In this document: positions 203-3,453 of the stretch, piece after piece | How positions within the stretch are numbered: the first letter of the stretch is position 1 | Layout: every line of letters starts with the position of its first letter | Origin: an uncultured Candidatus Rokubacteria bacterium | GTDB taxonomy: Bacteria; Methylomirabilota; Methylomirabilia; Rokubacteriales; DASRDR01 | Direction: 5' to 3' | DNA: 64,000 bases | Assembly: GCA_963826115.1 (NCBI GenBank) | Contig: CAWGVS010000005.1 | Location: forward strand, 64,001 to 128,000 | The notes under the pieces: model-generated | The model's database searches: none | Seen by the model: the letters and a program-made list of their open reading frames with translations, nothing else | What the model was told of the DNA's origin: nothing | Translations under genes and position numbers: made by a program

Positions 203-232
203 TTGTGAAGCGACCCGCGGCGGTGCTATGGT
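203..232 (+). promoter_or_regulatory. Putative sigma70 promoter (leaderless) for the RAPPA leader ORF
   Basis: TTGTGA (203-208), 18 nt spacer, TG-n-TATGGT (224-232); GTG start 6 nt downstream. Confidence 0.45.
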
Positions 233-238
233 GGCGCC

Positions 239-799
239 GTGCGGCTCCGTGTGATCCGGCTCACGCTCGCGCTCTCCCTGACTCTCGCCGCGGCGCCTGT
301 CTGGGCGCACGGGATCAACGGGCCCCTCGCCCTCGACGATCTTCGCGAGCCCACCGTCGCCGTCGTGGGCCCGAGCGCGGAGCCCGCGCGCGCGCCGGAC
401 GCCGCTATGCCGGCCCACCTCACCGCGGCGCCACGCGGGCGCCTCGCCGGCGGCGACGGCCTCGCGGCGGCCGCGGGCGTCCTGATCGCGGCGGCGGGAC
501 TCGTGGGCCTCACGCGCGGCTGGCGGCGAGACCCGCGGCGGGCGATGGCGACGGCCACGGCCGCCCTGGTCCTGGGGTTCGTCGTCGAGACCACGCCGCA
601 TCTGGTCCACCACAGCCTGGATCCCGACAAGGGCGCCGGCTGCCAGGTGCTCCAGACTGTCGAGCGCAGCCAGGCCGCGCTCGGCACGCCCGACGTCGTC
701 CCCGCCGAGACGCCGAGTCGCCTGGTCGAGACGCCGCCCCGCGAGACGGCGCCGACCCTCGCCGCGCCCGCGGCTGTCGGTCGCGCTCCGCCCGCCTAG
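239..799 (+). CDS. Exported/membrane leader protein with His/Cys cluster and C-terminal RAPPA (putative ribosome-arrest peptide)
   Basis: Signal peptide (AAAPVWA-HG), two TM segments, PHLVHH...GC motif, Pro-rich linker, ends VGRAPPA*; lies directly upstream of copCD. Confidence 0.75.
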   Translation: MRLRVIRLTLALSLTLAAAPVWAHGINGPLALDDLREPTVAVVGPSAEPARAPDAAMPAHLTAAPRGRLAGGDGLAAAAGVLIAAAGLVGLTRGWRRDPRRAMATATAALVLGFVVETTPHLVHHSLDPDKGAGCQVLQTVERSQAALGTPDVVPAETPSRLVETPPRETAPTLAAPAAVGRAPPA

Positions 800-897
800 C
801 CCGCTCCTCCTTCTCGCAGTTTCCATCGTCGCGCGACCGCGCGGGACCGTTCCGCGCTCGCGCAGAATCGTCGAGATTCACGAAGGAGCGATCCATG
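800..897 (+). promoter_or_regulatory. Putative anti-SD/SD sequestering structure between the leader and copCD
   Basis: CGCTCCT (802-808) is complementary to AGGAGCG (884-890) and CTCCTTC (807-813) to GAAGGAG (882-888); inner GC hairpin at about 831-863. Confidence 0.55.
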
Positions 898-2880
898 GAG
901 CGCCCGGGGCCGGACTTCCGGCCGCCGCCACCCGTGCCGGGCAGTGCCGCGTCGCCGCCTTTCCGACGTGCACGTGCCACGTCATCCGTCACGCGGCGCG
1001 GGCTCGTGGCGGCGGTGGTCGCCGTCGCCTGGGCCCTGCCTGCGACGCCCGCGGGGGCGCACGCCGTCCCGGCCGCGATGGAGCCGCCACCGAACGCGCG
1101 TCTGGACCGCGCGCCCGGCGAGGTGGTCATCCGCTTCACCGAGCGCGTCGAGGCGCGTCCCAGCAGCCTGGAGGTGCTCGACGCGCGCGGCCAGCGTGTC
1201 GAGCAGGGCGCCGCCGCCGTGGTCCCTGGCGATCCCTGGCGGTATCGCGTCGCGCTCCCGGCGCTGCCCGACGGCGTGTACACGGTGGCCTGGCGCGTGC
1301 TCTCCGCCGACGACGGCCACGTCACCAGCGGCGCCCACGTCTTCACGGTGGGCGCCGCCGGGGCGCCGGGCGGCGAATCTGCGCCCACCCTCCGGAGCGG
1401 AGTGGGAGGGAGGCCGTTCGCGCGGTGGCTGGTCGGGCTCGGCGGGGCGCTGCTCCTCGGCGCCCTCGTCGCCGGACCGCTCCTGGGCCTCGGGGGGCTC
1501 GGTGGAATGATCGTCCTGGGAGGGATCGCGGTGGCCGCGGGGGCCACGCTCGACCTCGCGCTCCAGGCGCGAGACCTGGCTGGCGAGCGCCCGCTGGCCG
1601 GCGTCCTCGCAGCGCTCCTGCTCAGCCCGCCCGGCTACGCCGGCCTCGCTCGCATCGGTCTCGTCGCGCTCCTGCTCGGCCTCCTCGGCCTGCGTGGCTC
1701 GCGGGCGCGAGCCGGCGATGGCCGAGCGCGGGTCGGTGCCCTCGTCGCGATGGCCATCGTGGCGACGGGCGGCCTCGTGAGCCACGGCGCGGCCGCGGCC
1801 GAGGGGCGAGCGCTCGCGCTCGGCGCCGAGGCGCTCCACCTCCTCGCGATGGCGTCGTGGGTCGGCGGGCTCCTCTGCTTCGCGACGGTCTACTGGCGCG
1901 CGGGCGCCGCGGGGACGGCCGATCCGGAGACCGAGCGCCTCGTCGTGGCGATCCCGACCTTCTCCCGGCTCGCGGTGTTCGCGGTCGCGATCATCGGGGT
2001 GAGCGGTCTCCTCCTCGCGCGCCTTCACCTCTCGGCGTGGAGCGAGCTCCTCGACACCACGTACGGCCGGTGGGTCGGGGCCAAGGTCGCGGTCTTCCTG
2101 GCGATGATGGGGCTCGGCGCGTGGCACCAGTGGGGCGTCGAGTCGCGGCTCCGGCGCGCGCTGGCTCGCGGCCTCGCGGGGTCGGGCGCGGTGTCGCTCT
2201 TCCGGCGCACGGTCCGGATCGAGGCGGCCCTCGGCCTCGCCGCGCTCGGACTGGCCGGCGCGCTGGGCGTGACGGCGCCGCCCTCGGGGTCGTCATCGGC
2301 GGGGGTGGTGGAGACCCCGGCGGCCGCGCCGGCGGGCTTCACTCACGAGCGCGCCCTCGACGCGGCCCGTATCCGGCTCGAGATCACGCCCGTTCGGCCC
2401 GGGCCGAACGCGATCCGCCTGACGGTCACCGATCCCGCGGGCCGTCCGCTCGCCGACGCCACGGCCGCCCTCGTCCAGGTGACGCCGGCCGACGCCAGCG
2501 TGGGCGCCGTCTCGTTCCAGCTCGATCGCGCGGCGCCGGGCGTCTTCACCGCGCCGTCCGCGGTGTTGGGGTTCGCGGGCCGCTGGAGCGGACGCCTGGT
2601 CGTCCAGCGGACGAACGCCTACGACGTGAACGACCGGTTCGACCTGGTCGTGGCCGAGGGCGTTTCCGACCACGCCCACGTTCATGCCGCCGCGCCCGCC
2701 GTGGCGGCGACCGCCCCGCGCCGCGGGACGCCCTTGGACCGCGCCACCGTCTCGGTCGCCCTGGCGGCCGCGGTCGCCTCACTCGTGCTCTTCCTGCGAA
2801 GCGGCCGTCAGCTTGACGCGGCTCGCCGCCTCGTGTCCGACAACCCACAACCGCCGGCGTCCGCGCCGGCCCGGAGGTGA
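895..2880 (+). CDS. copCD: CopC-CopD fusion copper uptake/resistance protein (YcnJ/CutJ-like) with C-terminal Ig-like domain and TM anchor
   Basis: SD GAAGGAG then ATG at 895; mature N-terminus HAVPAA, WRVLSADDGH CopC motif; CopD helices with LVSH and HLLAMASWVGG; HAHVH near the C-terminus. Confidence 0.85.
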   Translation: MERPGPDFRPPPPVPGSAASPPFRRARATSSVTRRGLVAAVVAVAWALPATPAGAHAVPAAMEPPPNARLDRAPGEVVIRFTERVEARPSSLEVLDARGQRVEQGAAAVVPGDPWRYRVALPALPDGVYTVAWRVLSADDGHVTSGAHVFTVGAAGAPGGESAPTLRSGVGGRPFARWLVGLGGALLLGALVAGPLLGLGGLGGMIVLGGIAVAAGATLDLALQARDLAGERPLAGVLAALLLSPPGYAGLARIGLVALLLGLLGLRGSRARAGDGRARVGALVAMAIVATGGLVSHGAAAAEGRALALGAEALHLLAMASWVGGLLCFATVYWRAGAAGTADPETERLVVAIPTFSRLAVFAVAIIGVSGLLLARLHLSAWSELLDTTYGRWVGAKVAVFLAMMGLGAWHQWGVESRLRRALARGLAGSGAVSLFRRTVRIEAALGLAALGLAGALGVTAPPSGSSSAGVVETPAAAPAGFTHERALDAARIRLEITPVRPGPNAIRLTVTDPAGRPLADATAALVQVTPADASVGAVSFQLDRAAPGVFTAPSAVLGFAGRWSGRLVVQRTNAYDVNDRFDLVVAEGVSDHAHVHAAAPAVAATAPRRGTPLDRATVSVALAAAVASLVLFLRSGRQLDAARRLVSDNPQPPASAPARR

Positions 2881-2886
2881 GAAGCC

Positions 2887-3453
2887 ATGCGCGCGATATC
2901 GACGATGACGTGGAGCCTCGCGGCCCTCGTGGCCCTGCTTGGTCTGGCCGGTCCGGCCGCCGCCCACCAGCGGCAGCTACTCCAGGTGGGAGGAACGGAC
3001 TACCTCCTGGTCGTCGGCTCGCTCGACGAGCCTGTGTTCACGGGCGACAAGAGCGGCGTCGACCTGACGGTCCTCGTGCCGGATCCGGGGGCCCCCATGG
3101 ACTCGCGCGCCGAGAAGGCGAAGCCGGTCGAGGGCCTGGAGAAGACGCTGAAGGTGGAGGTCAAGGCCGGCCCGCACGCCCGAGTGTTCGAGTTCGAGCC
3201 CAGGTTCCGGGCGCCGGGCCGGTACGACGCGGTGTTCTTCCCGACCGTGGCCACGACGTACACCTACCGCCTCTTCGGAACGATCAACGGCGCGCCGTTC
3301 GACGTGGCCTTCGTCTGCAACCCCGGCGGCCACATGGCCGGCGAGGACCGGAGCGTGGTGAAGGTGTCCCAGGACGTCACGCGGAAGGGCCTCACCGGAA
3401 GCTTCGGGTGCCCGCGGGCCCGGAGCGAGGCGGAGTTTCCCCCGACGAGGTAG
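2887..3453 (+). CDS. Secreted hypothetical protein, His at predicted mature N-terminus (possible Cu-binding)
   Basis: Signal peptide ending AAA-HQR; beta-rich body; 6 nt after the copCD stop. Confidence 0.7.
   Translation: MRAISTMTWSLAALVALLGLAGPAAAHQRQLLQVGGTDYLLVVGSLDEPVFTGDKSGVDLTVLVPDPGAPMDSRAEKAKPVEGLEKTLKVEVKAGPHARVFEFEPRFRAPGRYDAVFFPTVATTYTYRLFGTINGAPFDVAFVCNPGGHMAGEDRSVVKVSQDVTRKGLTGSFGCPRARSEAEFPPTR

Follow-up and report, generated by a model that had tools for sequence, protein, structure and literature searches.

The 186-residue product of an open reading frame (ORF) that precedes a CopC-CopD fusion gene in an uncultured Candidatus Rokubacteria bacterium is probably a metal-sensing arrest leader for copper genes, of the RAPP type and similar to CruR of Bordetella pertussis. 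The ORF lies in a stretch of 64,000 nucleotides, hereafter the window (assembly GCA_963826115.1, contig CAWGVS010000005.1, positions 64,001 to 128,000), and the features discussed are given in Table 1. We regard the core of this reading as well supported because the motif and its spacing are conserved and because paralogues and relatives of the leader precede copper or uptake genes. A preliminary description of the same DNA had proposed a RAPP arrest leader tied to copper genes. This is now very likely: R(A/G)PP, its C-terminal position, the HxxHH...C motif, and a spacing of 46 residues are all conserved.

The residues that characterise the leader are PHLVHH (120-125), then C135, and the RAPP ending. 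Among 52 close homologues, the invariant residues are P120, H121, H124, H125, D128, D130, G132, C135, A183, and P185. In 47 diverse members, which share 28-66% identity with the window protein, only H121, H124, H125, R182, and P184 are invariant, while P120, C135, and P185 are conserved in at least 90%. RAPP and the His/Cys motif, whose conservation the preliminary description had proposed to check, are kept down to about 30% identity. The C-terminus reads (C/R/x)GRAPP(A/V), followed by the stop, in 50 of the 52 close homologues. The other two (P0029 and P0037) and the leader of locus L005 (3965-4375) have no in-frame RAPP ending, which counts against the reading; these copies, together with that of P0054, are probably frameshifts or assembly errors.

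We also searched 98 fetched proteins with regular expressions. A His motif of the PH(L/S)(V/A)HH type was found in 95 of them, and R[AGS]P[PT] follows it in 93 (RAPP in 81, RGPP in 8, RAPT in 3, and RSPP in 1), with a tail of a single residue after PP in 69. The expressions missed P0079, which has LHSVHH and RAPP; in the same set, P0087 and P0092 are long repetitive chance matches, P0054 is fused or frameshifted, and P0058 is a fragment of 51 residues. The distance from Cys to Arg is 46 residues in 79 of the 92 proteins that have the Cys, 45-48 in 11, and 61 in two that are probably frameshifted. It is 46-49 in 51 leader ORFs taken directly from their loci, where the subgroup with HS(V/A)HH mostly has 48. 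Most columns of the linker lack a majority residue (A2 consensus): its length is kept and its sequence is not. Within the motif, the codons for Ala and Pro differ synonymously at their third positions while the residues stay fixed, which argues for selection on RAPP at the level of the peptide. Many members of the family have only about 100 residues and one transmembrane (TM) segment. Because these short forms retain nothing other than TM-PHLVHH-C-linker-R(A/G)PP, we take this arrangement to be the functional core.

The window protein has the sequence-level properties by which RAPP-like regulatory arrest peptides (Sakiyama 2021; Morici 2024; PMC12992588) are recognised. It is small (<300 residues), carries R-A/G-P-P near its C-terminus, shows an N-terminal localisation signal as judged from sequence features, AlphaFold2 helices, and charge distribution, and is followed, 95 nucleotides from its stop to the next ATG, by a co-directional gene related to the presumed signal, that of CopC-CopD. 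The N-terminus consists of MRLRVIR, a hydrophobic stretch, and VWA before HG, and the equivalent AWA-HG is kept among long homologues. Cleavage after VWA would make His24 (308-310) the mature N-terminus. Between the signal peptide and the helix pair lie about 50 residues with little conservation. AlphaFold2, run with the 52 homologues, places helices at residues 2-23, 73-97, 99-127, and 133-148 and leaves the remainder disordered. The mean predicted local distance difference test score (pLDDT) is 62; it rises to 74-87 over residues 71-130 and drops below 50 at 152-170. Nine Pro lie among residues 150-186. The loop between the two hydrophobic helices is probably cytoplasmic because it holds five Arg/Lys within residues 92-103, and an inside position of this positive loop would put the His/Cys block on the periplasmic side. 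The preliminary picture of the ORF (signal peptide, His at the mature N-terminus, two TM segments, HLVHH...C, a Pro-rich spacer, and a GRAPPA ending) is thus confirmed from the sequence, with a topology that is predicted.

A leader family of Methylomirabilota and its relation to DUF2946

A word-indexed search returned 52 relatives of the leader, all derived from metagenomes or metagenome-assembled genomes (MAGs), and a HMMER scan of 1.84 billion representatives gave 50 clusters at E<=0.001. Where these relatives are named, they are only 'hypothetical protein' of Rokuibacteriota/Methylomirabilota. The leader itself has no match at E<=1 among Pfam and NCBIfam models. Within the phylum, the family matches 83 of the 151 sampled Methylomirabilota genomes (81 of 149 without the two unpublished genomes G029 and G101, which enter this tally alone and contributed no locus or sequence). 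Among high-quality genomes the count is 63 of 98, and 34 of the 54 genera are represented. It is an unannotated family that, among the relatives searched, is found only in Methylomirabilota/Rokubacteria. The sole locus labelled otherwise, L002, comes from an Actinomycetota MAG; its leader is 56% identical to ours over the best-matching segment, and a flanking gene matches the third ORF of the window. Mis-binning is a likelier explanation of this label than a genuine actinobacterial member.

CruR belongs to DUF2946, and the relation of our family to it is distant at best. The DUF2946 model (PF11162; gathering cut-off 23.7 bits) does not match the window protein at E<=1 and is missing from the Pfam matches of all 47 family representatives. 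The matches that these representatives do have (DUF4131, Wzy_C, and MerC among them; all E>=0.0016) were set aside as weak noise of the TM type. The best DUF2946 match in the leader's own genome has 14.5 bits and lies elsewhere in that genome. Searching the genomes of the phylum gave five weak PF11162 matches: two are distant members of the family (the ORFs of L053, 25.0 bits, and L055, 23.2 bits), one is another RAPP leader (L054), and two (L056 and L057) are apparently spurious, as they contain stops or lack a sensible ORF. The nearest named cluster to the leader in the ESM Atlas is also DUF2946, at 0.82, which we treat only as a lead.

The leader family has neither the CxxC of CruR nor the CxxxC of CutF from Rhodobacter capsulatus, and its one conserved Cys, C135, comes after H121-x-x-H124-H125. 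The preliminary remark that CxxC is lacking is borne out in this way. The leader does fit the ruler of the DUF2946 type (45 +/- 1-2 residues between the Cys motif and RAPP), with RAPP at 182-185 of 186 residues and a spacing of 46. Since PF11162 does not recognise it and it has no CxxC, we have not filed it as DUF2946; from the sequences, we regard the family either as a twilight-zone relative of DUF2946 or as an analogue that reached the same working plan by convergence.

The RAPP leader of L054, at 1480-1839 (+), shares its contig with a member of the family studied here. It encodes a protein of another family, with 119 residues and a single TM segment, that ends in SIRAPPTTLS. Its single Cys precedes the Arg by 47 residues, and its weak match to DUF2946 reaches 21.6 bits.

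Gene context of the leader

The 661-residue product encoded after the leader matches the Pfam models CopC (5.5e-19), CopD (2.3e-19), and FixH (2e-05); the NCBIfam models of CopD and CopC also match, below their cut-offs. The same genome encodes two further, distant paralogues of the leader, L022 (1402-1968) and L023 (about 1500-1956). Both are of the form ALHSAHH...C...RAPPV(P/L)PA, ending at the stop, with 48 residues from Cys to Arg. The L023 paralogue lies upstream of SCO1/SenC (3.3e-43) and then of an ORF read as PCuAC-like from its translation rather than from a model match. That of L022 lies upstream of an unknown secreted protein of 333 residues, followed by an ORF read as CopC-like. 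In other genomes, the leader is followed by the gene of a CopC-CopD fusion, of TonB (7e-22), of a TonB-dependent receptor (Plug, 2e-20), of a BBP2 porin (8e-30), or of the same unknown protein, with about 330 residues. Among the downstream genes recognised in the loci examined, in about 26 of which the ORF calls are reliable, there is no efflux pump, no multicopper oxidase, and no sec/yidC gene. Downstream calls were spurious in several high-GC loci, and the analyses of Shine-Dalgarno (SD) sequences described below (position of the SD complement, own versus cross pairing) used 26 loci chosen for a plausible SD, a start codon, and a signal-peptide-like N-terminus.

The secreted protein of about 330 residues (L022:2067-3065; also in L027, L042, L044, L050, L053, and L055) is the commonest product encoded after leaders of the HS(V/A)HH type. 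After its signal peptide it starts with HG(L/V)xG(K/R)RF(F/L)PxTLxIDDPFVADELSLP, and the copies of L022 and L044, which were tested, have no Pfam match at E<=0.01. In the window, copCD is followed at 2887-3453 (+) by the gene of a secreted protein of 188 residues, whose mature N-terminus would be His (AAA, then HQRQ) and which neither Pfam nor NCBIfam models match at E<=1. A homologue of this protein comes directly after the leader in L002, where copCD is missing. The CopC-CopD frame apparently starts with ATT or ATC in three loci (L001:4637-4639, L007:4658-4660, and L006:4447-4449); these codons are at the usual distance from a strong SD, and the frame runs into a signal peptide and a mature HAVP N-terminus.

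Upstream of the leader, a strict consensus scan of positions 1-1200 returned no promoter, so the probable promoter of Table 1 is called from conservation. In the nine-locus alignment A4, the T/G/T of the -35 element, GTGCTA..GTG, and CGTGC at the start of the leader are invariant. The GTG start is 6 nucleotides past the -10 element, with no SD-like purine run between them. Because the conserved promoter is so near to the GTG, the messenger RNA (mRNA) is possibly leaderless.

Table 1. Features of the leader and of the start of the CopC-CopD gene, in window coordinates.
Feature	Position	Strand	Evidence
Probable promoter: -35 TTGTGA 203-208, 18-nucleotide spacer, extended -10 TGcTATGGT 224-232	203..232	+	Conservation in 9 loci (A4); role presumed
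Leader ORF, 186 residues	239..799	+	GTG start at 239, TAG stop 797-799; product ends ...AVGRAPPA; 52 homologues
Signal-peptide-like N-terminus, residues 1-23	239..307	+	Sequence features; helix 2-23 in model; AWA-HG kept in long forms
Two hydrophobic helices, about residues 73-97 and 99-119, with Arg-rich loop RGWRRDPRR between	455..595	+	AlphaFold2, hydropathy, charge count
Putative metal site PHLVHHSLDPDKGAGC, residues 120-135: H121, H124, H125, C135	596..643	+	Conservation
Pro/Ala/Thr-rich linker, C135 to R182, 46 residues, sequence not conserved	644..781	+	Spacing counts, A2 consensus, pLDDT
Putative RAPP arrest motif: R182 CGC, A183 GCT, P184 CCG, P185 CCC; contains CGCUCC 784-789	782..793	+	Conservation, CTCC enrichment
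CU-rich, G-poor tract directly after stop (CCCGCUCCUCCUUCUCGCAGUUUCCAUC); candidate anti-SD and/or Rho loading site	800..827	+	Composition, RNAalifold
GC-rich intergenic hairpin, no U-run behind	831..863	+	-24 kcal/mol, z -2.56
SD GAAGGAGCG 882-890 and ATG 895-897 of the CopC-CopD gene	882..897	+	Sequence; GGAG/GGGAG core kept in 9 loci
CopC-CopD fusion gene, 661 residues, weak FixH-like C-terminal domain	895..2880	+	Pfam

Proposed route from arrest to CopC-CopD expression

In the mechanism that we propose, the leader would be exported with its helical hairpin as an anchor, leaving PHLVHH...C at the periplasmic end of the second helix. To judge from the motif, peptide-bond formation would stall with R182-A183-P184 in the peptidyl (P) site and Pro185 on its transfer RNA (tRNA) in the aminoacyl (A) site. 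At this point C135 and H121/H124/H125 would sit 49-63 residues from the peptidyl-transferase centre, just past the tunnel and the translocon, and the invariant 46-residue linker would be a ruler that sets the metal site at the outer mouth of the translocon. Copper on the His/Cys site may compact and pull the emerging chain and so set the duration of the arrest; in long forms, the mature N-terminal His may join the site. The arrested ribosome would maintain CopC-CopD expression by hiding or crowding CU-rich anti-SD elements from the RAPP codons to about +30 or, alternatively or additionally, by keeping Rho off this RNA, which is C-rich and G-poor. Release of the arrest would lower this expression.

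The RNA around the stop has a peculiar composition. A CU-rich tract follows the stop in all homologous loci. We counted 39 loci, omitting near-duplicates (L010, L011, L012, L013, L016-L019, and L024-L026), L002, and the frameshifted L005: the pyrimidine fraction is 0.64-0.74 at +1 to +30, compared with 0.47-0.55 further on, and the pyrimidine-rich, G-poor zone extends from the RAPP codons (-20 around the stop) to about +30. In the window, CUCCUUC (807-813) matches GAAGGAG (882-888) perfectly over 7 bp, and the best duplex of 800-820 with 877-894 has -14.0 kcal/mol. The preliminary description had matched 802-813 with 882-890; the pairing of 807-813 stands, but 802-813 is not one continuous complement. 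The GC hairpin that it placed between the two elements is real, since only 3 of 200 shuffles fold as well, and GC-rich inverted repeats are visible by reading, rather than by separate folding, at a similar position in other intergenic regions. The region 760-910 as a whole is no more stable than its shuffles (z -0.51).

A second complement of the SD lies within the arrest motif. Within the codons for Arg-Ala-Pro, CGCUCC (784-789) is exactly complementary to GGAGCG (885-890) in the SD. Another GGAGCG, formed by the last base of the ATG and codons 2-3 of copCD (897-902), also complements these codons, and it is with this copy that the centroid fold pairs them. Across the 39 loci, CTCC occurs inside the Ala/Gly-Pro-Pro codons of the motif in 24, compared with 10 of 101 control triplets. 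CCT, rare otherwise (13 of 295 for the other Pro codons of the same leaders), encodes the first Pro of the motif in 17 of the 39. In 13 of 26 loci, the best complement of the downstream SD has its start between -26 and +15 nucleotides of the codon in the P site; uniform placement would give 4.8. Arrest sites also pair better with their own SD than with the SDs of the other loci: among 5000 permutations, 4 reach the observed mean energy and 19 the observed run length, and perfect runs with the own SD extend up to 9 bp, in L038 and L048. When applied to nine intergenic regions, RNAalifold chose the helix between CU tract and SD as the closing one.

The positional and codon signals across the family favour SD masking by these elements, and several other results weigh against it. 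The helix count in A3 is mostly an effect of composition, because paired cells amount to 92% compared with a mean of 88% after shuffling, and 26 of 500 shuffles are as high; slid controls gave 58-85%. The anti-SD proposed at the outset keeps its CU tract and its RNAalifold helix in homologues, but the pair count exceeds these controls only modestly. The CCT bias could instead reflect an effect of the tRNA on arrest. When own pairing was set against cross pairing, the window came 21st of 26 and its copCD subgroup took ranks 12-26. The Fisher and permutation figures overstate significance because the loci are phylogenetically related, and folding predictions are weak at about 70% GC.

In the window, the geometry of the arrested ribosome is unfavourable. 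An arrest footprint with the P site at 788 and about +15 nucleotides ends near 803 and therefore leaves CUCCUUC (807-813) uncovered, contrary to the earlier idea that a stalled ribosome would sit on the anti-SD. The probability that the SD is unpaired is 0.09 in the free RNA, 0.12 with the arrest footprint, 0.26 with a terminating ribosome, and 0.30 with 785-815 blocked. Even this last block, from which the preliminary description expected a switch, opens the SD little because the pyrimidine tract 815-827 takes over as partner. Of 11 independent lineages, only about 4 show an SD that opens by at least 0.1 when the footprint is blocked, and in several it closes further; counted by locus the figure is 9 of 16, many of them near-identical. 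Overall, we see SD masking as a conceivable output route in this window, with a chance somewhat short of even.

The same arrest leader could have the output of CruR, with SD pairing in a secondary role. The lead ribosome would then block Rho on a C-rich, G-poor Rho utilisation (rut) region made of the 3' end of the ORF and the CU tract, and release would let Rho terminate before or inside copCD. In 11 of 11 lineages, C% minus G%, taken over windows of 78 nucleotides, has its peak (+14 to +29) within 40 nucleotides of the stop on either side (-40 to +40), and 8 of the 11 show a value of no more than +1 by +80. Part of this excess of C is due simply to the Pro/Ala/Thr codons. CruR is described with the same 'C>G bubble' and with termination by Rho shown experimentally (PMC9426467); by this account CruR does not work by SD masking, the mode that the preliminary description had invoked for the present leader. 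The genome encodes Rho (123.8 bits), a scan found no intrinsic terminator, and a probably leaderless start next to the promoter would bring the first ribosome into close coupling with the polymerase. The intergenic region, on the other hand, is short and contains the stable hairpin, and a rut site leaves unexplained both the CUCC at the arrest codons and the locus-specific matching with the SD. Taken alone, this explanation is tentative. As an output, Rho is equally possible beside SD masking, and the two routes may operate together.

The direction of the response is a separate question. Because the downstream genes have functions in uptake or delivery, low copper would lead to arrest and keep the gene on, and copper would lead to release and turn it off. 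By analogy, this suggests the polarity of CruR, in which arrest keeps acquisition genes on. The polarity could be reversed: copper-induced stalling in CutF opens a stem-loop that shields the SD (10.1101/2025.02.05.636593), and copper that prolongs arrest here would turn copCD on as a resistance function, in line with the Pfam names of CopC and CopD ('copper resistance'). We consider this unlikely, since no gene for efflux or detoxification was recognised downstream among the loci examined and the identified ones serve acquisition or delivery (CopC-CopD, SCO1, TonB, receptors, and porins). In B. subtilis, copper limitation induces YcnJ, a CopC-CopD fusion that acts as an importer, which also counts against a reversed polarity.

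The two remaining explanations dispense with the coupling to copper genes or with copper itself. The leader might be a stable, small copper-binding membrane protein, such as a chaperone or an accessory subunit, in which RAPP is incidental or merely slows translation and nothing downstream is regulated. The long forms, with their extra periplasmic segment and conserved mature N-terminal His, would suit such a protein, and so would the helical hairpin modelled at pLDDT 74-87. We find it improbable, because many members do with one TM segment and so without the N-terminal half, the linker retains its length and not its sequence, RAPP is at the extreme C-terminus before unrelated downstream genes, and the codon bias in the motif suggests a role at the level of RNA. 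Least probable of all is a monitor of Sec/YidC insertion or of secretion capacity, like SecM, MifM, or ApdA: the leader does have TM segments as well as a signal peptide, and the known way in which RAPP leaders are released is a pull from the translocon (PMC10951233), but no sec or yidC gene was recognised downstream in the loci examined, and the invariant His/Cys and copper-related neighbours favour metal sensing.

A broader reading takes several of these observations together, and we hold it, as a whole, to be rather doubtful. Its design rule, for periplasmic metal-sensing arrest leaders in general, would be a metal ligand placed 45-49 residues from the arrest Arg whatever the chemistry of the ligand, with CxxC in DUF2946, HxxHH...C in the family studied here, and the Cys-bearing leader of L054 with 47 residues as examples; the metal site would leave the translocon at the very moment of the stall. 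The arrest codons would have been selected to spell an anti-SD (CUCC, through the rare CCU/GCU) that is hidden in the P and A sites of the ribosome. The family, separate from DUF2946 or diverged past it, would be the main post-transcriptional copper switch of Methylomirabilota.

Significance and comparison with known systems

The control of copper genes by nascent chains is a recent theme (CruR in 2022, CutF in 2023-25, and a survey of RAPP/RGPP proteins in 2025) and has been tested in few organisms. The leader family would carry it to a phylum of uncultivated soil bacteria, more than half of whose sampled genomes have the family. It replaces the Cys pair by a His-rich site on a membrane helix and keeps the distance between ligand and RAPP almost as in DUF2946; this near-equality makes the idea of a ruler directly testable through the length of the linker. 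The natural minimal versions, with one TM segment and about 100 residues, are suited to in-vitro arrest and force-profile assays, and the codon bias at the arrest site offers a handle to separate SD masking from Rho. Hundreds of 'hypothetical proteins' encoded before the genes of CopC-CopD, SCO1, TonB receptors, and porins could be annotated as regulatory leaders.

RAPP copper leaders as such are already known. A survey of December 2025 describes small TM or secreted RAPP/RGPP proteins upstream of copper-related genes in many phyla, with YcnI, PCuAC, TonB receptors, and 'copper-resistance proteins' as downstream classes, conserved His/Cys as predicted copper ligands, and in-vitro arrest for Streptomyces examples such as SLIV_18480 and SLIV_16130 of S. 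lividans (PMC12992588). Compared by description only, our leader resembles these proteins in its C-terminal RAPP/RGPP, its TM or secreted nature, its His ligands, and the copper genes downstream, and the gene context of the family mirrors both their gene classes and DUF2946 operons. To call it an undescribed sensor class, as had been suggested from the window alone, is thus too strong. The main text of the survey does not mention Methylomirabilota or Rokubacteria, a fixed spacing between ligand and RAPP, or an anti-SD codon bias, although its supplements may list members, and our literature search found no paper joining Rokubacteria or Methylomirabilota with arrest peptides. As read from its sequences, the family is distinct and unannotated, His-based and membrane-anchored, with a ruler like that of DUF2946.

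With ApdA, ApdP, and SecM the leader would share RAP at the P site together with Pro at the A site, a localisation signal, and an mRNA structure that controls the downstream gene. As described in PMC10951233, these peptides monitor Sec/YidC and precede sec genes, whereas ours precedes copper genes and bears a metal motif. CutF is closer in its presumed signal, because a co-translationally exported chain senses periplasmic copper, and stalling near its C-terminus governs translation initiation of the next gene through an RNA structure that shields the SD (10.1101/2025.02.05.636593). The same source describes CutF with CxxxC and a C-terminal PPP that depends on elongation factor P, and not with the CxxC and RAPP that the preliminary description had ascribed to it; our leader has RAPP with His/Cys ligands. 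Copper-induced stalling in CutF turns on a detoxifying oxidase, whereas the genes downstream of our leaders serve uptake or delivery, and the SD switch is putative.

The closest counterpart is CruR (Bp2923; Roy et al., PMC9426467). In that account, CxxC is 45 residues from RAPP, a distance from which more than 2000 proteins deviate by no more than 1-2 residues and which is reported to be important for regulation by CruR/DUF2946. Both systems have an exported leader ORF with RAPP at most three residues from its C-terminal end, a Cys-containing metal motif at a fixed distance from it (45 residues there, 46 here), and a GC-rich mRNA with an excess of C over G around the stop. CruR heads copper-acquisition operons, and TonB-dependent receptors are encoded downstream of relatives of our leader. 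The differences concern the sensor and its distribution. CruR is described as soluble and secreted, whereas the leader studied here would be anchored in the membrane by one TM segment, or by a signal peptide and two TM segments, and has PH(L/S)(V/A)HH and one Cys directly after the TM helix in place of CxxC. DUF2946 is found mostly in Proteobacteria, whereas this family, which PF11162 does not recognise, was found only in Methylomirabilota.

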